64,000 nt of DNA from positions 20,967 to 84,966 of the forward strand of contig CAZSFP010000003.1 of assembly GCA_964606285.1 (NCBI GenBank). Direction: 5' to 3'. Under the pieces are notes generated by a model. That model was not told the DNA's origin and made no database searches. It was given only the letters and a program-made list of their open reading frames with translations. Below, one piece after another: positions 27,232-55,050 of the stretch (the stretch's first letter is position 1; each line of letters opens with the position of its first letter). A program made the translations under genes and the position numbers. The stretch is from an uncultured Candidatus Saccharibacteria bacterium (lineage in GTDB: Bacteria > Patescibacteriota > Minisyncoccia > Phycocordibacterales > UBA9973).

Positions 27232-27286
27232 TTGATTTTTATAATAGATAGGTATATGGTTAAAGAAAATCGAACATTTACATCGT

Positions 27287-27991: not shown

Positions 27992-28094
27992 TGCAAAAAA
28001 AATCGGCCATATGCTGGTTTTTTTATTTGGTTGATTTTTATCAGGAATAGTATAAGGTGGAGAAAAATCACAGAACATTTCTAAAAGAAAAAAC

Positions 28095-28709
28095 ATGACA
28101 AAAGAGAAAAAAGACTTATTTGACTGGACACTCGCACTCATCATCGCATGGCAAATAGAATGTCTCAAAAAAGAACACAAGAAAGAAAGTATTGATCTGG
28201 AATTCTTCAACACACACAACACGCTTTCTTTGACAACACTGCTGACCTTCCCCTATTTCCTCGCAAGTGCAACTCTGGAACACAAAGGATTTCACTGGTA
28301 CGGAACATGGGTTGTTATTCGATACAACCATACAAATATTCTGGTGCCGGCTGGATATCAACAATACGTTGTAAAATTGTATGCAAATTCTTCAGATGAA
28401 AAACTCCAACTGGAACATATCAATCATTCGTATGAAGACAAGATTCCTGAATATGATGGATACGCGCTTCACGAACAGAGTTCATACATGCAAATCCTTC
28501 TTGATGGATTGAAATGTATCAAATTTTACACATCAAATAAATTCTTGGAATTCACAGACGAAAAATATGTGGCACTCATGCACAAGAATTCTGCTGTTAA
28601 TTTAACATTAATATATTACCCAAAACCGAAACATCCAGAAGATATATTGAAAAAACTTTTTGATAAAAATACCCGACATGTCTATTCCAAGGAACATGCA
28701 CATATATAG
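28095..28709 (+). CDS. Member 3 of the tandem paralog family
   Basis: Same conserved block (LFDWTLALIIAWQIECLKKEHKKESIDLEFFNTHNTLS...KGFHWYGTW ... KNTRHVYSKEH). Confidence 0.5.
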   Translation: MTKEKKDLFDWTLALIIAWQIECLKKEHKKESIDLEFFNTHNTLSLTTLLTFPYFLASATLEHKGFHWYGTWVVIRYNHTNILVPAGYQQYVVKLYANSSDEKLQLEHINHSYEDKIPEYDGYALHEQSSYMQILLDGLKCIKFYTSNKFLEFTDEKYVALMHKNSAVNLTLIYYPKPKHPEDILKKLFDKNTRHVYSKEHAHI

Positions 28710-29369: not shown

Positions 29370-30056
29370 ATGAAAAAAATCATTTTCACCTTATTTATAC
29401 TGGCTTTTGCCTGTATTGCCGCATTTTCCCAATCAAAATTTTCTGAGAAAAAAGTAAAAGACAAAATTGAAAGCATCAAAAAACAAAAACAAGACGATGC
29501 CGAAAGTATGGGTGCTTCCAATCTGGTTGATGTAACCATAGATGCTTATGTGATTCACACAGAAGAATTGACCCGCGTAGGAAATATTTATACTTCCATG
29601 TTGTCATGGAAACGCCAATCTGAAGAACACTACAAGAGTATTCTCACAGGAACAGCGACTCCAACCACGACAAGAACAATGCCCGAGGAATGGGACGGAC
29701 AACAAGAATACCAAAAAGACAAGGAGTATGTATTTGACGGCAGTGGAACAAATCCTTCGTTTTTGTTGGTAATTTCTCCTTTGGGAGAATTGCTTTCATG
29801 GACAATAAAATCAACCATGGTAACCATCAAAAATGATATGGTGTTTGTTCGCAAAGACATGGTTGTTGTCTATGAAAATTCCCTCGGTGAAATAAACGGG
29901 GATTTCATTCCAATGGTATCGCTTGAGGATTTTCCGAAATATATATACAAATACAAACAGACAGGATTCCTCTATGTTGCAAGCCAATGGAAATATAGAG
30001 AAGGGACCATGACTGACTACCGCGAAACCGATCATTACAGTCCTGTAGATTTATAA
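29370..30056 (+). CDS. Hypothetical secreted protein
   Basis: Signal peptide MKKIIFTLFILAFACIAAFSQ. Confidence 0.45.
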   Translation: MKKIIFTLFILAFACIAAFSQSKFSEKKVKDKIESIKKQKQDDAESMGASNLVDVTIDAYVIHTEELTRVGNIYTSMLSWKRQSEEHYKSILTGTATPTTTRTMPEEWDGQQEYQKDKEYVFDGSGTNPSFLLVISPLGELLSWTIKSTMVTIKNDMVFVRKDMVVVYENSLGEINGDFIPMVSLEDFPKYIYKYKQTGFLYVASQWKYREGTMTDYRETDHYSPVDL

Positions 30057-30990: not shown

Positions 30991-32496
30991 TTATTTTCTT
31001 ATTCCATGTTTCGCATGGAGCTTAATAATTTCTTCTTCGTCCAACTGTTCCTTTGTCGTCTTTGCTTTCTCCCCTAGTGCTCGTAATTCTTTATCAGGTA
31101 ATGTTTCAAGTTCAATAACTCGAGCACTGAGGGTTTCAATAGTATTCTTTTCTGGATTTTCTAATACTTCTTCGAGGAGTGCGTTCAAAATCCAACCCAT
31201 GCGGGGACCAGGTTTCATATTCATATCCTGCATCAGATAGTTTCCATTTACTTTTAATTGTTTCACTGAGATCGGATCACGGAGACATTCTTCGATCATC
31301 GCATGATACTTACGGAGACGGTACGGTGCTTCTTTTTTCTTCATCCCTACCCTGTCGCATTCACGAACCTGCATTAATGTCCAAATATTTTCAACTCCAA
31401 CATTGGCAATCATTCGACGAACCGCTGACAAAGTAATTTGTTCAGTATCTGAGAAAAACATATGATAGCGGACAAGTTTCACAACCAGATCGGTATCAAC
31501 TTTCGAAAATTTGAGTCGATCCATGATTTTCTGCACCATTCGTGCACCAACAACTTCGTGTCCATAGAAGGTATATTCTTTCTTTTGTCCCGGTCGGCGT
31601 GTGCGAGGTTTACCAATATCATGAAACAAAGCGGCTAGTTTCACATGAAACGGATATCCTTTGTCGGCGGCGTGCTGACAAGCTTGAACCAAGTGAGTAA
31701 AGACATCATATATATGTGCACCACCTTGTTCACAGCCGATCCCTTCTTGGAGCTCGGGAATCATATATTGAAGGAGACCAGATTTTTCCAAGAGTCCGAT
31801 ACCAGTCATAGGATTCGGCGAATTTACTATTTTCACGAATTCATCACGAATACGCTCCGCTGAGATGGTTTTAAGGAGATGAGTATTGGTATTTATAGCA
31901 TGAAACGTTTCATGTGAAACAACAAAGCCTAATTGGACAGAAAAACGGATAGCCCGGAGCATTCGGAGTGCGTCTTCTTCAAAACGACATTGTGGATCCC
32001 CTACTGTTTTAAGGATTTTGTCCTTTATGTCGTTTTGACCACCATACATGTCGATGAGATGTCCTTTTGAATTCAGGGCCATTGCATTGACTGTAAAGTC
32101 ACGTCGCCTGAGGTCATCTTCAATGTTTGTACTAAATTGCACGGTATCCGGATGACGATTGTCACTATACTTCCCTTCTATACGGTATGGAGTAACCTCA
32201 ACGATATTATTAGCTTCTGGCGACTGGCGACTGGCATCTAGCTCATTCTTATTCTCAAACACCACAGCGACGGTACCGAATTTATTCTCATAGACTGTCT
32301 TTTCAAACAAGCTGATAATCTGTTCCGGAGTCGCATTTGTCGTCACATCCCAATCTTTTGGTACTTTTCCCAATATCAAATCTCGAACACACCCACCGAC
32401 AAGGTAAGCTTCAAATCCTCCATTTTCAAGAGTTTTTGTTACACGTGAAACATAATCAGGGATTAGATTCAGGTTTATAGATTGTAGTTCTTGTTT
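30991..32496 (-). CDS. cca: CCA-adding tRNA nucleotidyltransferase with HD domain
   Basis: LVGGCVRDLILGKVPKDWDVTT (pol-beta nucleotidyltransferase head), RRDFTVNAMA and an HD motif (FHDIGKP). Start set at MKQELQS because the track's longer ORF overlaps the tRNA. Confidence 0.85.
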   Translation of the reverse strand, partial: KQELQSINLNLIPDYVSRVTKTLENGGFEAYLVGGCVRDLILGKVPKDWDVTTNATPEQIISLFEKTVYENKFGTVAVVFENKNELDASRQSPEANNIVEVTPYRIEGKYSDNRHPDTVQFSTNIEDDLRRRDFTVNAMALNSKGHLIDMYGGQNDIKDKILKTVGDPQCRFEEDALRMLRAIRFSVQLGFVVSHETFHAINTNTHLLKTISAERIRDEFVKIVNSPNPMTGIGLLEKSGLLQYMIPELQEGIGCEQGGAHIYDVFTHLVQACQHAADKGYPFHVKLAALFHDIGKPRTRRPGQKKEYTFYGHEVVGARMVQKIMDRLKFSKVDTDLVVKLVRYHMFFSDTEQITLSAVRRMIANVGVENIWTLMQVRECDRVGMKKKEAPYRLRKYHAMIEECLRDPISVKQLKVNGNYLMQDMNMKPGPRMGWILNALLEEVLENPEKNTIETLSARVIELETLPDKELRALGEKAKTTKEQLDEEEIIKLHAKHGIRK

Positions 32497-32879: not shown

Positions 32880-33165
32880 TTTTAAACCTTTATTTTCAAT
32901 GAAACTGTGGATAACTTAGTGGATATTGTGTATAAGATGTCTTTTAAAGACAGTAAAATAAAACGACAAAATATAAAATAACTATATATATCAACGTATT
33001 TTATAATGTCGTATAGAATAGGTATTTTTTCCCATATATTCACATATAAATGTTTCACGTGAAACGATTTTAAAGTATTTAGTATGAGTACATAGTACTC
33101 ATGTATAGTTTCATGTGAAACTATATTAAATACTATGTACTAAGTACTATATTCTATATACTGAG
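32880..33165. promoter_or_regulatory. oriC-associated region: reverse-orientation DnaA boxes (tgtggataa at 32906-32914; tagtggatat) and a cluster of palindromes (gtttcacgtgaaac at 33052-33065, atgagtac-ata-gtactcat at 33084-33102, tagtttcatgtgaaacta at 33106-33123) in AT-rich DNA
   Basis: The motifs are seen directly and the region lies upstream of dnaA. Confidence 0.55.
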
Positions 33166-33169
33166 TAAT

Positions 33170-33607
33170 ATGCCCAAGGTATTCACATCAAAAACCCAGA
33201 AGATAGGGGAATTAGGAGAGAAAATCGCCTGTAAGTACCTCATTTCCAAAGGTTTCAATATTCTCGATCAAAATATCACCAAGAAATATGGAGAAATAGA
33301 TATTCTCGCTCAAAAAAATAATAAAATTCATTTTATAGAAGTAAAAAGTGTTTCTGTGAGAGATTTATCTTCTGTTTCACACTTGCCCGGTGGAACTTTA
33401 GTGAAGTCGGGTGAAATAAAAGATTTTATCAACCCAGCCGAACAAATGCATTCTAAAAAACAGGAACGAATGAAGAAAATGATCAATGGATATCTCACAT
33501 CAGAAAAATATAAAGAGGAATGGGTGGTTGATCTCATTTGTGTCTATATTCATCACGACACACATCGCGCAAAAATTAAAATATATGAAAATATAATACT
33601 TTTTTAG
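33170..33607 (+). CDS. YraN-like (UPF0102) endonuclease-fold protein
   Basis: GELGEKIACKYLISKGFNILDQNITKKYGEIDILAQKNNKIHFIEVKSV matches the YraN/PD-(D/E)xK-like pattern (GE.D..A....VEVK). Confidence 0.55.
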   Translation: MPKVFTSKTQKIGELGEKIACKYLISKGFNILDQNITKKYGEIDILAQKNNKIHFIEVKSVSVRDLSSVSHLPGGTLVKSGEIKDFINPAEQMHSKKQERMKKMINGYLTSEKYKEEWVVDLICVYIHHDTHRAKIKIYENIILF

Positions 33608-33670
33608 TTATCCACAGTTATCCACCGTTTTTCAACATTTTGTTTTTGTTTTGTACACCTATCCACAGAA
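33600..33670 (+). promoter_or_regulatory. DnaA-box cluster immediately upstream of dnaA (ttatccaca 33608-33616, ttatccacc 33618-33626, ctatccaca 33658-33667)
   Basis: Perfect or near-perfect TTATCCACA consensus boxes. Confidence 0.7.
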
Positions 33671-35063: not shown

Positions 35064-35294
35064 TGGGGAAAAGATGTGAGTAAACTGGGAATAAAAAGTG
35101 GATTATACACAGAGGTTATCAAAAGATAGAAAAAGTTATCAAACGTTATCCGGAAATTAAGAGAAAAATAAACAGAGAGTGGGGAAAATAAAGATTGAAA
35201 TATATAGATATAGTGACCTTATCCACATATTAACAGCCCTAATAGTAATAATAAGTATATATATAATAAATAGATATATACTGTAGATAACATT
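35064..35294 (+). promoter_or_regulatory. dnaA-dnaN intergenic region with a DnaA box (ccttatccacat ~35216-35227), weaker boxes and an AT-rich unwinding-element-like tract. Likely the second part of a bipartite origin
   Basis: The motif and a >85% AT tract at 35225-35294 are seen directly. Confidence 0.5.
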
Positions 35295-37174: not shown

Positions 37175-38038
37175 ATGGTAGTAAACTTTAAGTTTAAAAA
37201 TGGACTAGTGTCATCTGGAACACTTCGAGATAAAATCATTGTGTTACTCGGTGAAAAACCATTATCAGGGAGTGATATTGTTGTTGTCTTTTGTAATTCA
37301 AATAATGTTACTCCTCAAGCTGTTTATAAAGCACTTCGTGTCCTTGTTCATGAAGAAATAATTGTTAAAGAAAAACAATTATTTACCTTGAATGCGCTAT
37401 GGCTTTCACATATGAGAAAATTTATTGATATGAGTGAATATATTCTTGGGGTCCATCATGAGCAATCTTTTTTTGATCCACTTTCAAAATCCCGTCAAAT
37501 TACTTTACGATTCAAAAATACAGAACTCCTTGATATATATTGCGGACATTTGTTATTGACACTCTTCGATCGTTTTAAAGGAAAACCAATATTTTTCTAT
37601 AACCATCATGAGTGGTTTATATATGATAGACCGCTTTCAGAAAATTATTTATATGAAAAAGTTGCAGAATCCGGACACAGAGTTTTTTTGACACTGGGAG
37701 CAGATACATCTCTTGCTCGATCATTCAGAAAAAAATTTGAGAAAGGAAACATACAAATCACTATTGATGAATCTTTTTCTATTCCAATAACTGACTATAT
37801 TTGTATTATTGGTGAGTATATTATTACCGCCCGATATGATAGATCGACCGTACAGGCGATCGATAATCTTTTTAAAGTAGCAACATTTACTACTGAAGAT
37901 GATAGTAAAAAATTGCGAAAAATTTTAGATAATTGTACAGATGCTCGAATTATTATAAATCGAAATAATAAACGCGCACAAAAATTAAGAAAAAAATTAG
38001 CGAAGAATTTCATTATTAAAAAAGAAGAATTAGAATAA
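37175..38038 (+). CDS. Winged-helix DNA-binding protein, paralog of 19059..19898
   Basis: PQAVYKALRVLVHEEIIVKEKQLFTL wHTH and the conserved C-terminal INRNNKRAQKLRKKLAKNF. Confidence 0.45.
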   Translation: MVVNFKFKNGLVSSGTLRDKIIVLLGEKPLSGSDIVVVFCNSNNVTPQAVYKALRVLVHEEIIVKEKQLFTLNALWLSHMRKFIDMSEYILGVHHEQSFFDPLSKSRQITLRFKNTELLDIYCGHLLLTLFDRFKGKPIFFYNHHEWFIYDRPLSENYLYEKVAESGHRVFLTLGADTSLARSFRKKFEKGNIQITIDESFSIPITDYICIIGEYIITARYDRSTVQAIDNLFKVATFTTEDDSKKLRKILDNCTDARIIINRNNKRAQKLRKKLAKNFIIKKEELE

Positions 38039-38083: not shown

Positions 38084-40672
38084 TTATTCCGTAACCATTA
38101 TATTTTTTTCTATAACTGCTTTGTTGTAAACAGTATCATATCCAGTGACACGAAGCGTATGTGAGCCGACAGAGAGAGAATAATTTTGTGGAGAGATGGA
38201 TGTCGTGAATGACATGTTTTCCAGAGTGGTGATGTAGATGTCATCGATGAAGATCATCACTTTTTTCAAAGGATAGGTTCCTTGACTGGTTGTCGTCACG
38301 GACATTTGTCCATTCATTGAAACTGTTTCAAGTGGAAATGTAGTAATGGTGAGATGTGGTTGTGTTGCTGGTGTGTGAACGTCATCGTATCCAGCTGGTA
38401 AATTTGCTTCAGTGATATATGGATAATTTCCACTGTGCGATGCCCACCAATTTTGAATTGGAATATTCCAACGACTAAATTGATTATCATCATCACTTGG
38501 AGTTTTTGGTGTTCGTGGTGCAGTCTTGTTGACCCAGTAAAGAATACTTTTGACATTGGTAATCACTTTCTCTGATCGAGTTTCTGGGGGAGTAAATTCG
38601 GTTGCACGTTTACCGGAAATTGTATCAATGACGACAGATGTGCCGCCTTGCCAGAGTCCACGGACAACGGGTGGAACGGTGTAGTCGACTGGTGCTGGGA
38701 TATATTTTTCAAACGGTTCTTTTGGTAGGGTTGGGAGAACATCCGCGAGGAATCGATGAAGGATTGGACCAGCGAGCGCGGAACCCCCTTTTTTCATTGG
38801 GACATTGTCATTGTTTCCAGCCCAGACACCAACAGCGATGTTCGGTGTGTATGCCATCGTCCATGCGTCTTTGTTATCGTTGGTCGTACCAGTTTTTGCC
38901 GCGACTTGGTAGCCAGGGAAGTTGAGTGCAGAGTTCGCACCAAATGTTGGAATGCGGGCGGTGTTGTCGGACATGACGTCGGAGAGCATGAGAACAGCAT
39001 TTTTGTCGAAAACCTGAGACGCATGCGAAGTAAATGCTTCGACGATGTCTCCTTTTTGATTTTTTATTTCGAGAATACCAGTTGCGGGATTGCGGACGCC
39101 AGAGTTGGCAAAGACGCTGTAGCCACTGGTCATGTCGAGAAGCGAGACTTCGGCGCCTCCGATCACGAGTGTGAGGCCATATCGAGCAGCACCTTCAAGT
39201 GAAGTGATACCAGCATCACGTGCGGTTTTGAGAGCATTGTTGATACCAACGAGATACAACATTTTGACTGCGGGGATGTTGCGTGATTCGGCGAGTGCAG
39301 AACGAAGTGAAATCGGACCTTTGTACGCATTGTCGAAGTTGTCCGGCATATAACAATCCGTTTTCTTGTGTCCGGGAAGCGGACTGCCGTACGCATTACA
39401 TGCAGAACTGAATTCTGTGGGGAGATCAAAGACCACGGTCTCTGGTTGATAACCCATGGAGAATGCAGTTTCGTAAATGAATGGTTTGAATGCAGATCCT
39501 GGTTGACGAAGTGCAGTCGCGACGTTGAAATTACCATCGACAGTAGTATCGAAATAATCGCGCGATCCGACCATGGCGAGAATTTGTCCGGTTTTTGGAT
39601 CGATAGCAACAAGTGCAGCGTTCTTGCCGTTGAAATCTTTTTCGTTTTTGAGTGCTTGATCTTTGACGATGGTTTCAGCTTTTGCTTGCATGGTTGCATC
39701 GATTGTTGTTATGACTGAAAGTCCTCCAGACGTAACTGTTTCAATACCGTATTTTTTCTCGAGGTAATCCTTTATATAAAACACAAAGTGTGGCGCGATA
39801 ATATGTGATTTTGCGTTCAGACGGAAAGTGACCTGTTCTTGTTTTGCGGCGGTGTGTTCTTCGGTGGTGATGAAACCAACTTCTTTCATGCGATCAAGAA
39901 CGAGATTTTTTCGAGCCTCGAGACGGTCTTTATTTTTTCCAAATGGAGAATAAAACGTCGGTGCTTTTGGAATTGCCGCAAGGTATGCTGCTTCAGCAAG
40001 AGTCAGATCTTTTGCACTTTTACCAAAATAGAGTTTTGAAGCTTCTTCGATGCCATAAACGGTACCGCCATATGGAGATTCATTGAGATAGAGTTCGAGA
40101 ATCTGTTCCTTGGTTAGACTTCGTTCAAGCTTGATAGAAATAATCCATTCCTTGAGTTTGCGGGTGATGGTTTTATCTGTCGTCAGTAGTGTATTTTTGA
40201 CGATCTGTTGTGTGAGTGTGGAACCGCCCTGGGAGAATGAACCGCTGGCGAGGTTGGCAAGAACAGCACGAATGATCGATAATGGACGAATACCTTGGTG
40301 ATTCCAGAATTCAGTATCTTCGATGGCGACCGTTGCGTTCTTTATATAGACACCCATGTCAGCATACGGAATACTGGTGCGTTTGATGTCAGAATGGACA
40401 TCATAGAGGAGAATCTTGCCGGTACGATCGTAGATCTTTGTCGAATTGATGACCTGTCGTTCATCAAAGGCTTTGAAATCCGGCATACGGAGTGTGCCGA
40501 TCCAGACGAGAAGAATACTTGCGCCAATGATGCCAATGCCGACGATAGCAAGAGCGATGTTTTTCAGTGCATGTTTTATTCCGTGTTTAAAGCCGAAAAC
40601 ACTCAAAAATTTCTTTTCGATGTGTGCTGCTATTTTTTTGAAATGATGCCAAGCTTTTTTTACTATTTTCAT
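38084..40672 (-). CDS. mrcA: Class A penicillin-binding protein (bifunctional glycosyltransferase/transpeptidase) with a long C-terminal extension
   Basis: GT51 motifs (ATVAIEDTEFWNHQGI, GGSTLTQQIVKN), the transpeptidase SAFKPFIY (SxxK) and KTGTTND; N-terminal TM anchor; 862 aa. Confidence 0.85.
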   Translation of the reverse strand: MKIVKKAWHHFKKIAAHIEKKFLSVFGFKHGIKHALKNIALAIVGIGIIGASILLVWIGTLRMPDFKAFDERQVINSTKIYDRTGKILLYDVHSDIKRTSIPYADMGVYIKNATVAIEDTEFWNHQGIRPLSIIRAVLANLASGSFSQGGSTLTQQIVKNTLLTTDKTITRKLKEWIISIKLERSLTKEQILELYLNESPYGGTVYGIEEASKLYFGKSAKDLTLAEAAYLAAIPKAPTFYSPFGKNKDRLEARKNLVLDRMKEVGFITTEEHTAAKQEQVTFRLNAKSHIIAPHFVFYIKDYLEKKYGIETVTSGGLSVITTIDATMQAKAETIVKDQALKNEKDFNGKNAALVAIDPKTGQILAMVGSRDYFDTTVDGNFNVATALRQPGSAFKPFIYETAFSMGYQPETVVFDLPTEFSSACNAYGSPLPGHKKTDCYMPDNFDNAYKGPISLRSALAESRNIPAVKMLYLVGINNALKTARDAGITSLEGAARYGLTLVIGGAEVSLLDMTSGYSVFANSGVRNPATGILEIKNQKGDIVEAFTSHASQVFDKNAVLMLSDVMSDNTARIPTFGANSALNFPGYQVAAKTGTTNDNKDAWTMAYTPNIAVGVWAGNNDNVPMKKGGSALAGPILHRFLADVLPTLPKEPFEKYIPAPVDYTVPPVVRGLWQGGTSVVIDTISGKRATEFTPPETRSEKVITNVKSILYWVNKTAPRTPKTPSDDDNQFSRWNIPIQNWWASHSGNYPYITEANLPAGYDDVHTPATQPHLTITTFPLETVSMNGQMSVTTTSQGTYPLKKVMIFIDDIYITTLENMSFTTSISPQNYSLSVGSHTLRVTGYDTVYNKAVIEKNIMVTE

Positions 40673-40856
40673 TCCGTTAGAAGTAGATCACGATCATTGT
40701 TCGTGTGTCTACATATTGATTAAAAGTAATAATAGATTCTCGTTGCATATAATTGATATCCCGTTGTGATCGTGACTTCTAACGGAATTCATATTGTAAA
40801 TCATACCACATCAGGATATTTCATGAACGCGGATGCTGTGATACTATAGACGCATC

Positions 40857-42121: not shown

Positions 42122-42376
42122 TTATTCTGCTTCTTCCTCTTCTTCAACTCCACCAATGATATCTGCTGGAATTTCTTCATCTTCGTCGTCCAAGAGATCA
42201 TCGCCTATGTCGCTACCAGTATCGTCTTCATCAGTGATGTCATCGTCTGACATTTTTTTCTTTCGATCATCTATTTCATCTTCTTCGACATAGCCAAATC
42301 CTGAAGCGAGATCGTTGTCTGAGACAACATCTGCCCCTTCTCCAAATTCACTCATGTGTTCGTCATAATACGACAT
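42122..42376 (-). CDS. Small highly acidic protein (hypothetical)
   Basis: Asp/Glu-rich 84 aa. Start set at MSYYDEH. Confidence 0.4.
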   Translation of the reverse strand: MSYYDEHMSEFGEGADVVSDNDLASGFGYVEEDEIDDRKKKMSDDDITDEDDTGSDIGDDLLDDEDEEIPADIIGGVEEEEEAE

Positions 42377-46574: not shown

Positions 46575-47003
46575 TTATTTATCTAATACATCCAAACTCC
46601 AGGCGATGTCGCGAATGCGGGATTCGGAGAATTTCTTTTCATGCGTTTGGGCTTTTTGGATTTCCTCGACTTTTGGTTGTTCCTTGAGGGATTTGTTTTT
46701 TGGTTGTTTCCAGATAAAGAGTTTTCTTTGGAAAATATAGGTGAACCACGCTTCAACGATAAAAATAAACGGTTTTTCATTGACGCGATAGAACGTCAGG
46801 GCGATGGCAAAGGCAATGAGACCGAGCGCGAGGGGAATACCGAGAAATCCCGGCAGGATCCGATAGAGAATGTACGCGCCGCCTGCGCCGCCTGCGAGAT
46901 AGACGAATTGTCGAAACGTGAATGGTCCGAAAATCTTGTCTTCGACGTCGATGAATTGAGGAACGCGAAATTGCATATGAATAGTATAGCAGGTGAAAAA
47001 CAC
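46575..47003 (-). CDS. Small two-TM membrane protein, divergent from the VirB4 operon (possibly VirB3-like)
   Basis: 142 aa with hydrophobic hairpin GGAGGAYILYRILPGFLGIPLALGLIAFAIALTF. The assignment is by context only. Confidence 0.35.
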   Translation of the reverse strand: MFFTCYTIHMQFRVPQFIDVEDKIFGPFTFRQFVYLAGGAGGAYILYRILPGFLGIPLALGLIAFAIALTFYRVNEKPFIFIVEAWFTYIFQRKLFIWKQPKNKSLKEQPKVEEIQKAQTHEKKFSESRIRDIAWSLDVLDK

Positions 47004-47010
47004 GATACCA

Positions 47011-47090
47011 ACTAGTACAGTAGTACGAGTACGTAGTATGTAGTATAAATTCCTAATACTTTGTACTATGTACTCATACTAAGTACTATT
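47011..47090 (+). repeat. GTAC-rich conserved intergenic element, copy 1 (upstream of the VirB4 operon)
   Basis: tagtacgagtacgtagtat ... atactttgtactatgtactcatactaagtact; aligns with 50484-50550 and partly with 33080-33150. Confidence 0.6.
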
Positions 47091-47151
47091 TTTTTTGACT
47101 ATCCACTACAACCTATAACCTATTACACTATTTTTCTGTTATACTTTTTGC

Positions 47152-47793
47152 ATGGCACTCTCCGCACAACGGACGCAAGATTTCGTTCCGATCAAAGAAG
47201 TGCGTGACGGCATCGTCGTGCTCAAAGACGGCGGTCTGCGCGCCATCGTCATGGGTTCATCGGTGAATTTGTCTCTCAAATCGTACGAAGAACAAAAGGC
47301 GACCATCATGCAATTCCAAGCGTTCCTCAACACGCTTGATTTTAGTACGCAAATTGTTGTTCAGTCTCGCCGTCTCGACATCCGTCCATACCTCCTCCTC
47401 CTCGAGGGTGAAATGGCGAAACAGGCAGAACCGCTTCTCAAAGTTCAGACCCGCGAATATATGGAATTCATTAAACAATTCAATGAAGAGGTCAACATCA
47501 TGACTAAACATTTTTTTATTGTTGTTCCATACAGTGAAGAAGCACTTCAATCAAGCGGTGCAGGGTCTGGGTTTTCATTGTCGTCCATATTTGGTGGCAA
47601 GGATGAAAGCAAGAAACAAATGCAAGCGAATTTTGAAGAAAAGCGCAATCAGCTCGAGCAGCGCATCGCAGTCATTCAACAAGGTCTCGGTCGTGTCGGG
47701 GTCAAATCCGAACAATTGACTACAGAGGCGGTGATCGAACTGTTTTACAAGACATTTAATCCTGGCGACAGTCAGGCGTCGGTCGGAAAATAA
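47152..47793 (+). CDS. N-terminal ~210-aa segment of a VirB4/TrbE-family ATPase, encoded as a separate ORF
   Basis: QDFVPIKEVRDGIVVLKDGGLRAIVMGSSVNLSLKSYEEQ... resembles the first conserved block of VirB4/CagE/TrbE N-termini. The stop lies 1 nt before the next ORF's start, in a different frame. Confidence 0.55.
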   Translation: MALSAQRTQDFVPIKEVRDGIVVLKDGGLRAIVMGSSVNLSLKSYEEQKATIMQFQAFLNTLDFSTQIVVQSRRLDIRPYLLLLEGEMAKQAEPLLKVQTREYMEFIKQFNEEVNIMTKHFFIVVPYSEEALQSSGAGSGFSLSSIFGGKDESKKQMQANFEEKRNQLEQRIAVIQQGLGRVGVKSEQLTTEAVIELFYKTFNPGDSQASVGK

Positions 47794-47794
47794 T

Positions 47795-49885
47795 ATGTCA
47801 TTCATTTCAGATTTTTTTTCAAAAAAGAAAACCCCTGCGCAAACCGATACGCACGCAGTACTGCCGGTGCTGCCGGCTGAAATTTATGAGCAGGCAACGC
47901 TCGAGCTTCAGGATGTCATCGCGCCATCAGCACTTGAAATCTCTCCGAAAAATTTGCACCTCGGCGACAAGATCGCTCGGACATTTTTCGTCATCGCATA
48001 TCCGCGCTTTTTGACCGACAACTGGTTCTCACCTATCATCAATCTCGACAAGATTTTTGATGTCTCTATTTTCATTCACCCGATTGAGACGAGTGAGATT
48101 CTCCATACATTTCAAAAAAAAGTCGCAGAAGTCCAGAGTCAGATCAATGTTCGTGAGAGTAAAGGTCTCGTTCGCGATCCGATGCTCGATACCGCGTATC
48201 GTGATCTCGAATCGCTCCGCGACAATCTCATGCAGGCGCAGGAGAAAATGTTTGAAGTCGGACTCTATATCACTATCTATGCCGACAATGACATAGAACT
48301 ATTCAAGGTTGAAACAGAAGTCAAAACAATTCTCGAATCACGCATGGTCTACATCAAGCCGGCGTTGTTCCAGCAAAAAGAAGGATTCATGAGTATGATT
48401 CCGACTGGCATGGACCTCATCAATGTCCACCAGAAACTCAACTCTGAACCACTCTCGTCTATTTTCCCATTCGTGTCATTTGACCTCACGAGTGAGAAGG
48501 GGATTCTCTATGGAGTAAATCGTCACAATTCGAGTCTTGTTATCTTTGACCGCTACTCACTCGAGAACTATAACTCTGTGCTCTTTGCAACATCTGGCGC
48601 AGGTAAGTCATTTGCGACAAAATTGGAAATTCTCCGAACACTCATGTTTGGTACGAGTGTTATTGTTATTGATCCAGAAAATGAATACAAATACCTTGCC
48701 GAAGCGGTTGGTGGACGCTATTTCAATATTTCACTTTCGTCCGATCACCATATCAATCCGTTCGATTTACCGATCCCACGCGAAGACGAAACTGCTGCTG
48801 ATGTCCTTCGTTCAAATACGATCAATCTCGTCGGACTTTTCCGTGTGATGTTGGGTGGGCTGACACCGGCAGAAGACTCAATCATCGATCAGGCGATTAC
48901 GGAAACCTATGCGATCAAAGATATCAGTCCCGAATCTGATTTTTCAAACATTGAGCCGCCACTATTGTCTGACTTTGAAATGGTACTTGCGGGCATGGAC
49001 GGTACCGAATCGATTATCGCTCGGCTCACTCGCTATACCAAGGGTACATGGGCACGATTCTTGAACCAAGCGTCGAACGTCAACATCGACAAAAACATGG
49101 TGGTTTTCTCTATTCGCGACATGGAAGACGAATTGAAACCAGTGGCGATGTATATCGTGACGCATTATATCTGGAATGAAATCCGCAAGAATTTGAAAAA
49201 GCGTCTCCTTGTTGTCGATGAGGCATGGATCATGATGAAAACTGAAGATACGGCGTCATTCCTCTTTGGTATTGCAAAGCGTGGCCGAAAATACTTTCTC
49301 GGTCTCGCGACGATCACACAGAACGTCGATGACTTTATGGGATCAAAATATGGTGTGGCTATCGTGACGAATGCGTCGATCGCACTGCTCCTCAAACAAT
49401 CTCCGAGTAATATTGCCTTGGTTCAAAAAACATTCAACCTGACAGATGAAGAAAAATATCTTCTCCTCGAATCTGGTGTTGGGGAAGGTATTTTCTTTGC
49501 CGGACTCAAACACGTTGCGATCAAAGTCATCGCTTCATATACTGAACAACAAATCATTACTTCAGATCCGTCACAACTCCTCGCGATCAAGGCCGCCAAG
49601 GATGAACTTGCGCAGTCTGAACAAGGTATAAATGAAGGATCACCGCTCAATGTTGGACAAGACATCATACAACAAGAGAAAGATGCACAAAAAATAGAAA
49701 CAACGTCAACACCTGTATCACCGGCACAAGAGCAATCACCAGAAGTTCAAGAAATTCCTGTAGAAAAAGAAACACCAGTAATTCCGGAAGTGCAATCTGG
49801 GGCAATCACGATAGATGATGATGCATCTGCTCGCTTGATCGAAGAATTACGCGCGCTTGAAAGTGATTTTGGTGGTAAGATATAA
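47795..49885 (+). CDS. VirB4/TrbE/ConE-family type IV secretion ATPase (main body)
   Basis: N-proximal block ALEISPKNLHLGDKIARTFFVIAYP, Walker A LFATSGAGKSFATK, Walker B LLVVDEAW and an acidic/Pro-rich C-terminal tail. Confidence 0.8.
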   Translation: MSFISDFFSKKKTPAQTDTHAVLPVLPAEIYEQATLELQDVIAPSALEISPKNLHLGDKIARTFFVIAYPRFLTDNWFSPIINLDKIFDVSIFIHPIETSEILHTFQKKVAEVQSQINVRESKGLVRDPMLDTAYRDLESLRDNLMQAQEKMFEVGLYITIYADNDIELFKVETEVKTILESRMVYIKPALFQQKEGFMSMIPTGMDLINVHQKLNSEPLSSIFPFVSFDLTSEKGILYGVNRHNSSLVIFDRYSLENYNSVLFATSGAGKSFATKLEILRTLMFGTSVIVIDPENEYKYLAEAVGGRYFNISLSSDHHINPFDLPIPREDETAADVLRSNTINLVGLFRVMLGGLTPAEDSIIDQAITETYAIKDISPESDFSNIEPPLLSDFEMVLAGMDGTESIIARLTRYTKGTWARFLNQASNVNIDKNMVVFSIRDMEDELKPVAMYIVTHYIWNEIRKNLKKRLLVVDEAWIMMKTEDTASFLFGIAKRGRKYFLGLATITQNVDDFMGSKYGVAIVTNASIALLLKQSPSNIALVQKTFNLTDEEKYLLLESGVGEGIFFAGLKHVAIKVIASYTEQQIITSDPSQLLAIKAAKDELAQSEQGINEGSPLNVGQDIIQQEKDAQKIETTSTPVSPAQEQSPEVQEIPVEKETPVIPEVQSGAITIDDDASARLIEELRALESDFGGKI

Positions 49886-49893
49886 TTATTCAT

Positions 49894-50478
49894 ATGGATC
49901 CGATGCAATCACAAACAAATACATCATCTGATGTTCCGGCACAAACAGTACCCGCGGTGTTTGATCTTGATGCACCAATAACAAAAGTTTCTGAAACAAA
50001 ACCATCTGGTTCAATTGCGGATTATTTTTCTGCGCCAATAAAAAACCCTGCGGGACCGTCATCTGTGCCAACTTCAACCCCATCACCTGCATCAGACATT
50101 CCTGCTGTGGTGGATTCTATAGAATCGATCGAGAAGGATTTCAAAGCGGAAATTGGAAAAAACCCTGAACAGACGATCAATGGCGGTATAAAACCGAGCC
50201 GGGGAGTCTTTGAACTCGATATCGAACGACTCGATATGGTTATCGGCAGACTAACACAGACGATTGAATCACGCGAAGCAACTGTTCGTGGCAAAATGGC
50301 GACCTTGAAAGCACTTCGTACAGAGATAGAAAACGACATTGCAGGTATCAAGGGTCTTGAAAAAGAAAAATCTCTCGCGCTTGCTGACAAGAAAAAGATC
50401 ACTGATCTTCATACGCAGGAACTCGATATTGAGAAACATATTGATACGTATGAGAAAGACACAGAATCTATAGTATAA
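49894..50478 (+). CDS. Hypothetical coiled-coil protein in the VirB4 operon
   Basis: 194-aa ORF, 8 nt after the VirB4 stop; heptad-like C-terminal half. Confidence 0.45.
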   Translation: MDPMQSQTNTSSDVPAQTVPAVFDLDAPITKVSETKPSGSIADYFSAPIKNPAGPSSVPTSTPSPASDIPAVVDSIESIEKDFKAEIGKNPEQTINGGIKPSRGVFELDIERLDMVIGRLTQTIESREATVRGKMATLKALRTEIENDIAGIKGLEKEKSLALADKKKITDLHTQELDIEKHIDTYEKDTESIV

Positions 50479-50483
50479 AGGAC

Positions 50484-50550
50484 TTAGTACGAGTACATAG
50501 TATTTTTAGTTTCATACTAAATACTTTGTACTTGTACTTCATACTCATTT
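50484..50550 (+). repeat. GTAC-rich conserved intergenic element, copy 2 (upstream of the 50596-60036 operon)
   Basis: tagtacgagtacatagtat ... atactttgtacttgtacttcatactcatt. Confidence 0.6.
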
Positions 50551-50595
50551 TCTGTACACAGTAACTCCTTCTTTTTATTTTCTTGGCATTATATA

Positions 50596-51573
50596 ATGAG
50601 ATCAATGAAATATCTCTCGATTATCATACTTTCATGTGTTTGTTTTTTTGGTGTGACACATGGCGTTGCACATGCAGAACTTCGAGAAAATGACATTTCC
50701 GCTACAGTAACACCGGAAATTCCTGGTCCAAATGAAGACATTCAATTTCTCTTCTCTTCATTTTCTTTGGATATCAACCGAGTGATGTTTGTTTGGAAGG
50801 TTGACGGCAAGACAGAACTTTCTGGTATCGGCAAAACAAATTTTATGACAAAGTCCGGTCCTGTGGGATCAAAAAAAACGATCACCGTGACACTCAATTA
50901 CCAAGGCGACAGCTTGACCAAAACATTTGTCATCCAACCGACCTCACTCGATCTCCTTTGGGAGGCCGTTGATACGTATCGTCCACCGTTTTACAAAGGA
51001 AAAACACTTCCGGGATCGGAAGCAAAAATAAAAATTGTTGCTCAACCTGATATGAAAGGGGTGGCTGGCAAGCAGGTGAGTGCGAGTAATATGCTTTTTT
51101 TCTGGAAGCGGAACTATACGACTGCACAGGCGGCTTCGGGATATGCAAAAAACAGTTTCACATTCAAACATAATTATTTGAACAAAAATGAAATTGTGTC
51201 CGTCATCGGAACAGATTTCGAGTCAGGGAAGTCAGCAAGTGCAACTTTTTCACTCAAGCTTTCAAATCCAAAAATTCTTTTTTATGGTGTTACCAGTGAT
51301 CTCGGTATCTGGTTTAACAGTGCTTTGTCGAACAACCAGGCTCTTTCTTCTCTCGTAACACAGATTTTTGCTGCGCCGTACTCATTTGCACCACGTGAAG
51401 CAAAAAGTGGAGAATTTTCTTTTGCGTGGTCAATAAACGGCGTGTCTGCGACTGCTAATACTATTAGAAATATGATTACTGCTGGTTCTGGTGTTTCGTC
51501 AATCGGTTTGCGCATCGAAAGCAATCCGCGATTGTTTCAGACTGCTGAAAGCCGCATAAATTTCTCAAAATAA
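50596..51573 (+). CDS. Secreted hypothetical protein
   Basis: Signal peptide MRSMKYLSIIILSCVCFFGVTHGVAHA. Confidence 0.5.
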   Translation: MRSMKYLSIIILSCVCFFGVTHGVAHAELRENDISATVTPEIPGPNEDIQFLFSSFSLDINRVMFVWKVDGKTELSGIGKTNFMTKSGPVGSKKTITVTLNYQGDSLTKTFVIQPTSLDLLWEAVDTYRPPFYKGKTLPGSEAKIKIVAQPDMKGVAGKQVSASNMLFFWKRNYTTAQAASGYAKNSFTFKHNYLNKNEIVSVIGTDFESGKSASATFSLKLSNPKILFYGVTSDLGIWFNSALSNNQALSSLVTQIFAAPYSFAPREAKSGEFSFAWSINGVSATANTIRNMITAGSGVSSIGLRIESNPRLFQTAESRINFSK

Positions 51574-51574
51574 T

Positions 51575-53695
51575 ATGAAATATTTTTTCCTCTCACTTTG
51601 CATACTTCTCGGATCATTCTTTGTTTCATCTGAACAGGTTTTTGCTGTGATAAACCTCAATCCGGCAACAACAACGGTTAGTATGAGTATCAATTCACTC
51701 AATACTCAAAACGGAACTATTGGATTCAAGGCGCATGTCATGAATACGGGTATTATACCAAGCACACCAACGTACAGTGTTATCAATACTCTCAGTGTCA
51801 ATAATAGTGGGGTTGCGAGTACATCTTTTTCTGGTTTGGTTGCCGGTGGCTCGTATCTCGTTCAAATCAAATCATATCCTTTGTCTGATCCAACTGATTT
51901 GTCTCTTGATCAAGAAAAACCATTTCAAACACAAGCACAGTCTCCAACGTTAACATCTCTTTCTGTTACTAGTGGCAATCAAGGACAAGTAATGACCGTC
52001 AACATGACGGGAACAAATTTTGTAAACGGGGCGACAGCAAACTTTGGTGCCAATATCAGCAACACGATAACATTTGTCAGCCCAACTCTTTTGAAGGCAG
52101 ATATTATCATAGCGAACAATGCGAGTGCTGGACCAAGAAGCGTAACAGTCACGAGCGGGGGAAACACAACAGCGCCAAAAACATTTACTGTTGTAGCAAA
52201 TCAGGGGACGGCATTTTCTATCGTTGGTGCATCACCAGTTTTTACAGCAGAACCAAATGATCCCAGCTTGGCACATGTCACTATGACCGTGACATTCAAC
52301 GGTGATCCGATGTCTGCCCCAGCAGCAGGTATCACGCTCGTGACAAGTACTGACAATCCTGCGACAGTGAATACTGTATACAATGGACCTGTCACAGGAA
52401 GTGCACAAACAGTTACCGGTAACTCATATGCAGTTGAACTTTCAAACGTGCCACTCAATACGACATATTCATATATCATAAAGAATGCAACGACAGGCGC
52501 GACTATGTATGGCCCAAAGACATTTACTGCCAGCCTCAATACGACACCACCACCGACGGATGCATGTCCAAATGAACCTGGGGTGCAACCAACAGGACCG
52601 TGTAATAACATGGAAAATGATGTTTGTACCAATGAACCTGGGATTCAGCCACCAGGAACACAGTGTCAAACAGTGTTATATACACTTCTCGAGCCGATCA
52701 TGGGCGTGACGGCGATCAACACAGCATCTGACCTTGCGACATTTTTCAACTTTCTTTTTAAGATGCTCATCGGACTCTGTAGTTTGCTTGCGGTTATCAT
52801 GATTATCATCGGCGGTATCGAATATCTCACAACCGAAGCGTTCACAGGCAAGAGCAATGCTCGCGATCGCATCGAAAATGCCGTAACTGGTCTTGTGCTC
52901 CTTGCGGCAATTTATCTTATTCTCTATACGATCAACCCAAATTTGTTGCGATTGAATATCGATTTGAAGGCGATTGAAACGCATATAGATGGTGTCACTC
53001 TTTCTGATGTTCAGTTTATTTCTGACGCTCAGTTTTCTAGTATTACAGGACATAGTCCTATTGCACCTGCGGCATTGGAAGGAGTGATAAATTCAGTTGC
53101 TCAATCGTACAGTATTGATGCATGTGCGATAAAGGCGATTATTGAAAAAGAATCAAACTTTAGAGTTGGTGCAATAGGTCATGATGAAAATGCCGGTCTA
53201 TCAAATCCGGCTTCGCGAACGAAGAGTGCAAAAGCATTTGTTGCGTCGCTCAAAAAATATACCGGAACAGTATTTACAACAAGCACTATTCCCTCGAGAA
53301 ACGATGATGAAACAAATGATCACAATGTTCTCGATCCAAACAGCCCCGGACTCGGCCTTGATTGGCGTTTTAGTCATGGTATAGGTCTCATGCAGGTCAC
53401 ATTTTTTCCACCTGCATATCAAGTAGATGGTTATACGACAAATCCACCTGCGTGGAGTACGAGAAACACGCACCCAACAAGAAACGGGCAGACACCAAAA
53501 CAAATGATGACAGAAGCAACAAACATCTCAAATGGTGCGTTGATCTACAAGAATTTTTTAACAAGCGATGCTTGTGGCAATGATCCATTGAAAGCATTTT
53601 CTGCTTATAATGCAGGAACAGTCGGGTGTACGACACCGACAGCATATGGTCAGATAGTTTTTGCCAACTACACTGCCTGCATGAACGGACAATAA
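51575..53695 (+). CDS. Multi-domain envelope protein: signal peptide, Ig-like surface repeats, hydrophobic helical hairpin, and a C-terminal lytic-transglycosylase (SLT/VirB1-like) domain
   Basis: TM pair (LLAVIMIIIGGIEYLT ... GLVLLAAIYLILYTI). SLT motifs AIIEKESNF (catalytic Glu-Ser) and GLMQV in the C-terminal ~200 aa. Confidence 0.65.
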   Translation: MKYFFLSLCILLGSFFVSSEQVFAVINLNPATTTVSMSINSLNTQNGTIGFKAHVMNTGIIPSTPTYSVINTLSVNNSGVASTSFSGLVAGGSYLVQIKSYPLSDPTDLSLDQEKPFQTQAQSPTLTSLSVTSGNQGQVMTVNMTGTNFVNGATANFGANISNTITFVSPTLLKADIIIANNASAGPRSVTVTSGGNTTAPKTFTVVANQGTAFSIVGASPVFTAEPNDPSLAHVTMTVTFNGDPMSAPAAGITLVTSTDNPATVNTVYNGPVTGSAQTVTGNSYAVELSNVPLNTTYSYIIKNATTGATMYGPKTFTASLNTTPPPTDACPNEPGVQPTGPCNNMENDVCTNEPGIQPPGTQCQTVLYTLLEPIMGVTAINTASDLATFFNFLFKMLIGLCSLLAVIMIIIGGIEYLTTEAFTGKSNARDRIENAVTGLVLLAAIYLILYTINPNLLRLNIDLKAIETHIDGVTLSDVQFISDAQFSSITGHSPIAPAALEGVINSVAQSYSIDACAIKAIIEKESNFRVGAIGHDENAGLSNPASRTKSAKAFVASLKKYTGTVFTTSTIPSRNDDETNDHNVLDPNSPGLGLDWRFSHGIGLMQVTFFPPAYQVDGYTTNPPAWSTRNTHPTRNGQTPKQMMTEATNISNGALIYKNFLTSDACGNDPLKAFSAYNAGTVGCTTPTAYGQIVFANYTACMNGQ

Positions 53696-53712
53696 TTGCT
53701 ATACTATTTACA

Positions 53713-55050
53713 ATGTCACGCATAGCTAAAATTTCCATCATTACGCTTATCGTCATCATCCTCGCTATTGGTGCAGTATTTCTTTTTGCAAAAATAAAAA
53801 ATCCGACAACACCGGTGACGACATCTGTTCGCAACCTGTTTCCATTTGGCACATCTTCAAATATTCCATCGACAGATGATAGTGGTACTGATGTAGTCGT
53901 TGTTCCTCCGTCAGAAACAGGTCCGTATGTCCCACCACGACTCCGCAAGATTACTGACTTTGCTGTTGCTGGACTCATTCCTCTTTCCAAAGAGCGTATT
54001 ATTCCACAACCTGTTACCACAGAAGGCACAGCATCGTTTCCTGTAACAACTCCTGCGCCTGCGACAGGGAAGAAACCAAAAACACCAGCAGTGCCAAAGG
54101 TTCCAACCGAAACAGTTACCACTGTTCGTTTCGTTGCCCGGTCAAATGCTGCTGTATATGAAAGCGATGTCGACAAAAAAGACCTTGAACGCTTGACGGT
54201 GACGTATATCCCGCGTATTTATGAAGCATATTTTGGCAATGCCGGTGACGACGTGATCCTTCGCTATTTGTCTGATGATTATCAAACGATCCAAACATAT
54301 CTTGCCCATATCCCAAAGCGTGCAGACCTCGCAATAAACAAAGATTTGACTGGCGAATTCTTGCCGGAAAATATCACAGACGTTGCGGTATCGCCTGATA
54401 TGAAAAAATATTTTTATCTTTTTTCTTCTGGAGAGACAACAAATGGTATCATGGGTACGTTTGGTGCATCAGCAAAATCACAAATTTTTTCTCACGGATT
54501 TTCTGAATGGTTGCCGACATGGACGAGTGCGGGAACGATTGTCCTCACGACAAAACCTTCCGCTACTGCACTTGGCTATGCATACGGTCTCGATATAGTA
54601 AAAAAAACATTGACCAAATACATGAACGCAACGCCAGGTGGCTACGCAGTCCTTTCGCCAAACGCAAAAACACTTCTCTATAGTGCGGCGGGAACAAGTG
54701 TCTCTCTCAATACAAAGCCAGTTGCAACATCCGGAGAACCAACGTCACTCGGGATTCAAACTCTTGCTGATAAATGTGTCTGGAACAGTACCTCGACTGC
54801 CATTTATTGTGCGGTGCCAACATCGCTCGCTGCAACGCTCCCTGACAGCTGGTATCAGGGAACTGTTTCTTTTTCTGATTTACTTTGGAAAATTGACACT
54901 GTGACTGGTGTTTCGACTCTTCTGGCAAATCCGGAAAAAGATGTTTCAGTTCCGATCGACATGACGAATCTCGCTCTTGATCCATCTGAATCGTATCTCT
55001 TTTTCATCAACAAAAAAGACGCGACCTTGTGGAGTTACTCACTCAAATAA
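53713..55050 (+). CDS. Signal-anchored hypothetical protein
   Basis: N-terminal TM ISIITLIVIILAIGAVFLFA. Start set at MSRIAKI. Confidence 0.5.
   Translation: MSRIAKISIITLIVIILAIGAVFLFAKIKNPTTPVTTSVRNLFPFGTSSNIPSTDDSGTDVVVVPPSETGPYVPPRLRKITDFAVAGLIPLSKERIIPQPVTTEGTASFPVTTPAPATGKKPKTPAVPKVPTETVTTVRFVARSNAAVYESDVDKKDLERLTVTYIPRIYEAYFGNAGDDVILRYLSDDYQTIQTYLAHIPKRADLAINKDLTGEFLPENITDVAVSPDMKKYFYLFSSGETTNGIMGTFGASAKSQIFSHGFSEWLPTWTSAGTIVLTTKPSATALGYAYGLDIVKKTLTKYMNATPGGYAVLSPNAKTLLYSAAGTSVSLNTKPVATSGEPTSLGIQTLADKCVWNSTSTAIYCAVPTSLAATLPDSWYQGTVSFSDLLWKIDTVTGVSTLLANPEKDVSVPIDMTNLALDPSESYLFFINKKDATLWSYSLK

Follow-up and report, generated by a model that had tools for sequence, protein, structure and literature searches.

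Intergenic elements with opposed arrays of a short word at type IV secretion system-like operons and in the origin region of a patescibacterial genome

The metbox arrays of MetJ are operators in which a short word is repeated in tandem. The same holds for omega, a ribbon-helix-helix (RHH) protein whose contiguous 7-bp heptads, in direct and inverted orientation, make up both promoter operators and the parS of pSM19035 (PMC9499535; PMC4627068). In this work we describe three intergenic elements of comparable design in a 64,000-nucleotide stretch of contig CAZSFP010000003.1 (the window, to which all coordinates without a prefix refer), which comes from an uncultured Candidatus Saccharibacteria bacterium. 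Going by the names of its protein homologues, the source is a patescibacterial genome of Paceibacteria/Nomurabacteria-like affinity. The elements, which we call A (47013-47088), B (50484-50545) and C (33074-33152), stand at the operons of a type IV secretion system (T4SS)-like module in two of the three cases and in the origin region in the third. Full-text searches of a collection of papers for this kind of element in this bacterial group, including Patescibacteria/candidate phyla radiation, turned up nothing relevant.

Each element is built of about four to five AGTAY words that face about four to five RTACT words, with a spacing of 6-8 nt between neighboring words, and the two halves of each element are reverse complements of one another. 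The words are arranged as follows.

Element A, 47013-47088, no strand assigned: AGTAY words start at 47014, 47022, 47028, 47035 and 47042 (spacings 8, 6, 7, 7) and RTACT words at 47056, 47063, 47070, 47076 and 47083 (7, 7, 6, 7); a 9-nt centre lies between the arrays, and a T8 run (47089-47096) follows the reverse array.
Element B, 50484-50545, no strand assigned: forward words start at 50486, 50492 and 50499 (spacings 6, 7) and reverse words at 50514, 50521, 50528, 50534 and 50541 (7, 7, 6, 7); an outlying forward word at 50472 lies within the 3′ end of the upstream gene.
Element C, 33074-33152, no strand assigned: forward words start at 33074, 33081, 33087 and 33094 (spacings 7, 6, 7) and reverse words at 33130, 33137 and 33144 (7, 7); the centre between the opposed arrays holds a parS-type palindrome.

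The three copies are ~74% alike, the right arms of A and B have an identical spacing pattern, and the centres of B and C both contain TAGTTTCAT. When 49 words are aligned, AGTA is invariant, position 5 is C or T, and the flanking positions vary. The left-arm motif TAGTACGAGTACRTAGTAT, allowing up to three mismatches, matches five times on the two strands of the window where shuffled sequences lead one to expect 0.02 matches, and the right-arm motif matches 11 times (0.19 expected from shuffles); every one of these matches is inside A, B or C. A sliding count with a threshold of at least six AGTAY/RTACT words per 80 nt finds dense clusters only at 33.0-33.2, 46.97-47.14 and 50.45-50.58 kb. GTAC itself is under-represented across the window, with 172 occurrences against 231 expected. 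Judged by their sequences, A, B and C are homologous copies of one lineage-specific intergenic element.

A first-pass annotation of this DNA had described one conserved element at the three sites, and its sequences are indeed present there; both the homology of the copies and the motif counts against shuffles bear the description out. The random scatter, extending into coding regions, by which that annotation would have recognized a simple dispersed repeat is not seen in the 64 kb, where all three dense clusters are intergenic and coding sequence holds none. It had also pictured a cis-regulatory module bound by a dimeric regulator with GTAC half-sites. Binding of a protein to the DNA is still the reading that fits best, but the half-site dimer has to be given up, since the actual structure is two opposed AGTAY arrays with ~7 bp spacing in which, with C or T at position 5, GTAC is unnecessary. 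The opposed-array anatomy and the complementarity of the arms are additions to the earlier description.

The elements resemble the omega and MetJ operators in having runs of at least four adjacent short repeats with a period of 7-8 bp (the spacings here being 6-8 nt), direct as well as inverted, at or near predicted promoters, with one array type apparently serving several promoters. They differ from both in their word, which is (t)AGTAY and not the WATCACW heptad or the AGACGTCT metbox, in that the two orientations occupy separate blocks with a gap of 9-130 bp, in their location on a chromosome instead of a plasmid, and in that no RHH protein was found among ~75 open reading frames (ORFs) of the window scanned with Pfam; from omega they differ further in spacing, 6-8 bp as against strictly contiguous 7-mers. 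The likeness is one of working mode and not of family membership. On this analogy, our favored but tentative reading is that the three elements are operator arrays to which a protein binds in the manner of omega or MetJ on their repeat operators. A row of molecules of a sequence-specific DNA-binding protein would assemble along each array, much as RHH repressors do on tandem 7-8 bp repeats, and the bound protein would set the activity of the adjacent leaderless-type promoters. Its targets would be the promoters of prgI and the TraC-like/VirB4 operon (A), of the second secretion operon (B) and of yraN-dnaA (C); at C it would act beside a cluster of parS sites and DnaA boxes. The hairpin potential of the elements would then be a by-product of having one word in two orientations. 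The data show how the elements are built, where they stand with respect to genes and predicted promoters, that the copies are homologous and how they are conserved; that a protein binds, which protein it is, and in which direction it regulates we infer.

The genes and predicted promoters on which this reading draws are listed here.

46575-46976, minus strand: prgI-family gene (VirB3-like, 133 aa), divergent from the TraC-like operon.
46983-47011, minus strand: predicted prgI promoter, with -35 TTGGTA (47011-47006) and TGc plus -10 TATACT (46988-46983), 6 nt from ATG 46976.
47137-47154, plus strand: predicted promoter of the TraC-like/VirB4 operon, with TGt plus -10 TATACT (47140-47145), 6 nt from ATG 47152.
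47152-50478, plus strand: operon 1 of the T4SS-like module, with the three genes listed next.
47152-47793, plus strand: TraC-like gene.
47795-49885, plus strand: VirB4-type ATPase gene.
49894-50478, plus strand: gene for the 194-aa coiled-coil protein.
50592-50607, plus strand: predicted promoter of operon 2, with -10 TATAAT (50592-50597), 7 nt from ATG 50605.
50596-55050, plus strand: operon 2 of the T4SS-like module, encoding a 325-aa secreted protein, a 706-aa protein and a 445-474-aa protein.
33157-33172, plus strand: predicted yraN promoter, with -10 TATACT (33157-33162), 7 nt from ATG 33170.

The prgI start is ATG 46976 and not GTG 47003, which gives a protein of 133 aa that matches the calls in relatives. 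The predicted prgI promoter abuts the left edge of A, so that the forward array of A lies against its -35. B lies between operon 1 and operon 2. C lies after two tRNA genes and upstream of yraN-dnaA-dnaN with DnaA boxes on both sides; its reverse array extends over the predicted -35 region of yraN, and the element ends 5 nt before the yraN -10. The elements are thus upstream of operon or gene starts at all three sites, as the first-pass annotation had it, and its start for the TraC-like gene, 47152, is the one used here. Its start at 50596 for the gene after B is probably to be moved to ATG 50605, because TATAAT and a further 7 nt lie upstream of that codon; from there the protein begins MKYLSIIIL, which is signal-peptide-like. 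The 706-aa protein of operon 2 has two weak matches, one to T4SS pilin (24.7 bits, below the Pfam cut-off of 26.6) and one to SLT lytic transglycosylase.

The promoters share a further trait with other genes of the window. A -10-like hexamer, often TGnTATACT, lies 5-9 nt and mostly 6-7 nt before the ATG at 15 of 69 gene starts (examples are 11833-13413 on the minus strand, 17078, 22472, 33170, 37175, 46976 on the minus strand, 47152, 49894, 53713 and 63108), and Shine-Dalgarno sequences are almost absent from gene starts. This suggests that leaderless transcription is widespread in the organism, and on the same grounds prgI, the TraC-like gene, yraN and, if it starts at ATG 50605, the gene after B probably give leaderless mRNAs. 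Because A lies between two divergent predicted promoters of this type, it is not expected to be transcribed, which makes a role as RNA unlikely at A.

The relatives referred to below were fetched as carriers of orthologues, and L-numbers designate their contigs or loci. In the lineage of the window and among its closest relatives prgI and the TraC-like gene diverge, but all of the more distant relatives examined (L049, L053, L074, L080, L081 and others) have them co-directional; the spacer that A fills corresponds to the prgI/traC junction of other lineages. Between the T-run of A and the traC -10, a stretch of 40 nt (47099-47139, ctatccactacaacctataacctattacactatttttctg) that includes a DnaA-box-like TATCCAC is invariant in L048 and L051, where nearby coding DNA is only 86-89% identical. 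Divergent from the gene block leading into the T4SS-like module is a gene for a small, extremely acidic protein with runs of D and E (42122-42376, minus strand), and the same 84-aa gene is found at the same position in L135 and L136; DNA binding is not a plausible role for its product, which could mimic DNA or act in a chaperone-like way.

The arms of each element can pair, with 21-27 strict Watson-Crick pairs on either strand (27 in A), RNA z-scores of -3.7 to -5.9 on either strand, and predicted stems of -24 to -34 kcal/mol on the plus strand. These strong stems are the starting point for an explanation that we consider quite unlikely, in which the element acts as an RNA or single-stranded DNA hairpin, whether as a terminator or insulator, as an RNase III or mRNA-stability site, or in the coupling of translation between cistrons. 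It is also favored by the T8 run after A and a U-rich tail after B at the end of operon 1, by a canonical GC-rich terminator hairpin nested in the palindrome at the B site of L051, and by elements in relatives that span the complete intercistronic spacers of co-directional genes. The mismatches between the arms speak for something else. Across 22 non-redundant elements we count 36 transversions, 7 sense-strand G.U pairs and 15 antisense G.U pairs, mostly within the 1-2 nt that separate the words; in 14 of the 22 it is the antisense strand that gives the better fold. Neither the lack of a sense-strand G.U excess nor the better antisense folding is expected if selection acts on a sense-strand RNA hairpin, and we therefore rejected such selection as the main model. 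By this sequence comparison it is the words, and not their pairing, that are kept.

Several other features also disagree with a hairpin. A and C are upstream of leaderless-type promoters, with no known transcript across A; the gap between opposed arrays reaches 86 nt in some relatives, and direct-only arrays exist. The ordinary terminators of this genome look different, having an A-run, a perfect GC-containing stem of 13-22 bp and a T-run, and a scan with the terminator consensus did not call A, B or C. As intrinsic terminators, A is misplaced between divergent promoters and C has no T run, whereas B, which ends an operon, is compatible with a terminator role; overall, RNA is the weaker reading. 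Rfam 15 gives no family match to the elements, with only sub-threshold miRNA-precursor-like matches at A and B, and across the window only four tRNAs reach the gathering score. Elsewhere in the window, near-identical terminator hairpins (aaaaaccggacNNNNNgtccggttttttt, then a repeated tail tttatttggttgatttttat) occur at 26247-26332, 26473-26584, 27174-27269 and 28017-28094, where they separate four ORFs of 190-235 aa with no Pfam match (26607-27182, 27287-27991, 28095-28709 and 29370-30056) that may be a tandem array of paralogues.

RNA sites made of periodic words are known for HutP and TRAP, which bind (UAG-N4)n and (G/U)AG repeats, respectively, with the UAG-N4 repeats of HutP on the 5′ arm of a terminator hairpin. 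Many of the elements likewise have words that start with TAG and a 7-nt period (TAGTAC, TAGGCnn, TAGCTnn, TAGTCTT). We rejected HutP/TRAP-like (UAG-N4)n RNA sites because A and C are not expected to be transcribed and because TAG is missing from the words of other lineages, which use ATAAAGT or AATTA; no HutP or TRAP domain was found in the window.

Among close relatives, the conservation of the elements is of an all-or-nothing kind. The TraC-like protein is identical to that of the window in L046 and L047, and the A spacer of L046 is the same as in the window. In L051, where TraC identity is 96%, A is 97.4% identical as compared with 89% for traC. In L048 (92% TraC identity), B is identical at 61 of 62 positions (98.4%), as compared with 74% for the flanking 194-aa gene and 86% for the downstream spacer. 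B in L048 and A in L051 are thus above the neighboring DNA in identity, and we take this as signs of purifying selection on the elements. The surrounding promoters are conserved as well: the prgI promoter block is 92-100% conserved in L048 and L051, the promoter blocks on both sides of A are 92-97% identical in L048, and the 63 nt between A and ATG 47152 are 97% conserved in relatives. At the B site of L051, both flanks still align around a palindrome of TAGTCT/AGACTA words. There, ~130 bp that take in all of B together with the 3′ end of the preceding 194-aa gene have been replaced (L051:6075-6190), which looks like a recombination import or an element swap.

At C, the ~230 bases upstream of yraN contain one difference in L133 (93% YraN identity). 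In L134 and L135 (85% and 76% YraN identity), forward AGTAY arrays follow the first parS and reverse arrays precede the yraN -10, with two further parS copies and 60-130 nt between the opposed arrays; L134 has in addition a second forward array, direct and without an inverted partner. Down to 76% YraN identity C retains arrays, but how many there are, how far apart they lie (~30 to ~130 nt) and which parS copies are interleaved varies; it is the arrays and not the stem that are conserved. A deletion between two parS copies seems to have given rise to the tight hairpin of C in the window. A search for PrgI homologues gave no match on the L135 and L136 contigs.

For more distant Paceibacteria we collected 80 loci encoding TraC-like proteins of 61-67% identity, in which the T4SS-like genes are co-directional, and looked for elements with hairpin scans restricted to intergenic DNA, which replaced a whole-locus scan that was too noisy. 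At many junctions the whole interval between the stop codon and a point a few bases short of the following ATG is taken up by an element that is built alike but uses another word. The occupied junctions include prgI/traC, traC/virB4, virB4/next and others further upstream, and occupancy differs between lineages; several copies with the same word can occur on one contig, and the opposed arrays are 9-86 nt apart. The words found are these.

TAGGCnn: L053, L078, L080 (two copies).
TAGCTnn: L066/L068, L081/L088 (two copies).
TAGAACC: L072.
ATAAAGT: L074, L084, L112, L116 (three copies), L122 (two copies).
AATTA-type: L062, L110, L117.

The finding is real, non-random and part of a wider pattern in the T4SS-like operons of Paceibacteria; its function and the protein that reads it we infer. 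Arrays that are only direct are also found: the one at L066:4466-4545 precedes a TGnTATAAT -10, and the one at L081:6175-6250 follows such a -10, within the 5′ leader. These two and further direct-only arrays at L099:4881-5004 and L116:4962-5030 consist of ATAAAGT-type words, with a TGnTATAAT promoter or an ATG directly before or after them. Since L066 and L081 also have TAGCT-word elements, a single genome can carry two word families.

A different conserved element was noticed at 40671-40788, where it precedes a PBP gene on the minus strand. It has ~20-nt inverted repeats (ttCCGTTAGAAG...CTTCTAACGGaa) around an AT-rich segment of 75-100 nt, with one repeat abutting the start codon (CTTCTAACGGRATG), and in seven relatives an element of this type precedes the TraC-like or a neighboring gene (L082:1601, L084:5990, L091:1818, L099:5990, L110:891, L124:2290 and L126:906). 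Its sequence is conserved across lineages, unlike that of the word arrays, and no Rfam family matches it at the gathering score; it could be a 5′-leader structure or an inverton-like switch.

The palindromes beside C belong to a separate system. Chromosomal parS is a 16-bp palindrome with the consensus TGTTNCACGTGAAACA (PMC7022226), and GTTTCAYRTGAAAC is the core of this consensus. Five parS-type sites lie within 1.5 kb (31.6-33.1 kb), adjoining DnaA boxes, with the 14-bp core exact at 31638, 31907, 33052 and 33108 and with one mismatch at 32438.

31638-31651, 31907-31920 and 32438-32451, no strand assigned: three parS-type sites inside the gene for the CCA-adding enzyme, the last with one mismatch.
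32906-32935, minus strand: DnaA boxes upstream of C; the one at 32906 is a perfect TTATCCACA, the one at 32927 has one mismatch.
33052-33065, no strand assigned: parS-type site GTTTCACGTGAAAC, which with its flanks (tGTTTCACGTGAAACg) agrees with 15 of the 16 positions of the consensus.
33108-33121, no strand assigned: parS-type site GTTTCATGTGAAAC in the centre of C.
33608-33667 and 35103-35290: further DnaA boxes, flanking dnaA.

Of the three perfect palindromes that the first-pass annotation had noted near C, two are such parS-type sites. The palindromes beside C match the parS core exactly or nearly, cluster near DnaA boxes and extend into a neighboring gene, as is often the case for parS; on this sequence match they are parS-type sites, members of a system already known. 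Two parS copies that remain separate in L134 and L135 were probably fused by a deletion into the hybrid site at 33108-33121. Each of these two relatives has five exact parS sites, two of which lie inside the orthologous CCA-adding enzyme gene at matching positions, and there are three in L136 and one in L137/L138, where the copy of this distant relative is directly upstream of yraN. Chromosomal parS accounts for the embedded palindromes only and not for the AGTAY arrays, because A has no parS and B, with its TAGTTTCAT centre, has what resembles a half-site.

One might still suppose that the arrays themselves are partition sites, that is, secondary sites for the ParB/parS complex or another origin-proximal factor, with A and B, at 14 and 17 kb, as satellites near the origin. 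In P1 parS, box B stands beside box A in a comparable way, and the heptad-array parS of pSM19035, with its RHH-type ParB, is a precedent. Every relative examined down to 76% identity has parS-type sites interleaved with C, the centre of B keeps half a parS, all three copies are within 18 kb of dnaA, and on the L116/L138 contig too the T4SS cluster is ~17 kb from the yraN/parS site. We nevertheless regard this as very unlikely, given that A has no parS-like centre, that the distant relative L138 has parS upstream of yraN and no arrays, that no parS core was found in the loci of other lineages with arrays between T4SS genes, and that the window contains no ParB gene.

Returning to operator arrays, a number of observations weigh against this reading of the elements. 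Pfam scans of ~75 window ORFs found no RHH, ParA or ParB protein, and there are no convincing small ORFs beside the elements. The candidate winged helix-turn-helix (wHTH) proteins of the window are a TrmB-like protein (10006-10785), whose gene is unrelated to the elements by position, and a probable second one (37175-38038), seen from its translation and without a Pfam match; by the word count of the window neither wHTH gene has an AGTAY array upstream, and nothing links them to the element. The distance between array and promoter is inconsistent, since the array overlaps the -35 at C and is 60-100 bp upstream at A and B; the arrays end 50-60 bp upstream of the predicted -10 of traC and operon 2, though A abuts the predicted prgI -35. 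The relatives were all collected through a T4SS gene, so that the T4SS association is in part an ascertainment effect, and on the L116/L138 contig, with its ATAAAGT arrays in the T4SS operon, the yraN/parS site has none, which means that the link between origin and T4SS is not general. Turnover among close relatives is fast: the 76% relative L049 has prgI co-directional and no A- or B-type element, none being found upstream of traC; L048 keeps the left array of A and has largely lost the right one inside an otherwise conserved spacer; and L051 retains AGTAY words at A although B has been swapped for a palindrome of another word. Finally, copies within one genome have not only their words but also their gap sequence in common, indicating that they arose by duplication, as repeat elements do.

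The last two points also fit a repeat like REP, REPIN, ERIC or MITE, a small palindrome that duplicates into spacers, is harmless or mildly useful there, and quickly decays or is replaced, with words common within a genome since the copies descend from one another. REP/BIME/REPIN, ERIC and Correia elements are also imperfect intergenic palindromes of 60-120 nt, often within operons, and form genome-specific families whose presence varies between relatives. The homology of the present copies extends over their full length, centres included, as shown by TAGTTTCAT in B and C and the common spacing of A and B. Presence or absence differs among lineages at the prgI/traC, traC/virB4 and virB4/next junctions in the manner of insertion polymorphism, the elements of relatives fill the whole spacer, each genome has its own word family with two to three copies per contig (L080, L081, L116, L122), and A has decayed in L048 as B has been swapped in L051. 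We judge this explanation rather unlikely all the same. The copy number is very low, with three copies in 64 kb, of which a single gene cluster holds two, and with ~74% similarity there was no recent burst. The arms consist of a periodic 7-nt word, and there is no GTAG-type head or TA duplication, nor is a target-site duplication seen when filled and altered sites are compared. Among the scanned window ORFs there is no transposase, RAYT or Y1 domain, the only recombinase being of the XerC/D type (17078-17989). Both B and the C arrays surpass nearby coding DNA in conservation, and a mobile element that depends on a hairpin would not produce the direct-only arrays.

Searches beyond the relatives point the same way, with nothing above chance single matches in GTDB representatives, viral contigs or plasmids. 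A scan of the GTDB representative genomes, a collection that does not include the source genome, with AGTAYGAGTACRTAGTAY gave 45 single matches, and those inspected are coincidences in coding sequence, for example in a conserved Binatus gene and four unrelated Patescibacteria genes. Since the viral-contig scan and plasmid BLAST gave chance single matches or none, we rejected an origin from a phage or plasmid. We also rejected clusters of methylation sites (Dam/SeqA-like, on GTAC), because nearly half of the words are AGTAT without GTAC and the words elsewhere are non-palindromic. Structured palindromes between cassette-like genes near a T4SS brought integron attC-like or oriT-like sites to mind; we rejected these in view of the conserved, core-like gene order, the occurrence of several copies in one operon, and the absence of both relaxase and integron integrase.

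In Caulobacter CtrA and in Bacillus Spo0A act through one motif found both at the origin and at the promoters of envelope machines, and the recurrence of the AGTAY word at the origin and upstream of surface-machinery operons is a functional analogy, and no more, to this arrangement. The CtrA motif TTAA-N7-TTAA and the 7-bp 0A box of Spo0A are bound by response regulators and lack opposed five-word arrays; no such regulator was identified here, and only this genus-level lineage shows the origin and T4SS linked. A bolder proposal, to which we give little credence, is that the elements represent an undescribed class of fast-evolving Paceibacteria cis-elements, opposed arrays of a lineage-specific 5-7 nt word with a 7-8 bp period, read by a co-evolving DNA-binding protein that would control the T4SS-like cell-surface machine. 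In the lineage of the window they would also have been recruited to parS/oriC, which would tie the expression of the machine to chromosome replication or segregation.

Patescibacteria have tiny genomes with few recognizable regulators, and the control of the T4SS-like machine that is conserved across the group is almost unstudied. The recognition of the parS-type cluster marks the probable origin-proximal centromere of this genome. If the elements are selfish palindromic repeats, they would be the first REP-like elements with periodic-word arms described in the phylum, as well as a useful marker of very recent genome change. If the arrays are operators, they would provide a sequence-testable handle on the reader protein and on the reason for the change of word from one lineage to another, and the copy among parS sites and DnaA boxes would suggest that, in an organism not yet grown on its own, expression of the surface machine and the cell cycle are in cross-talk.

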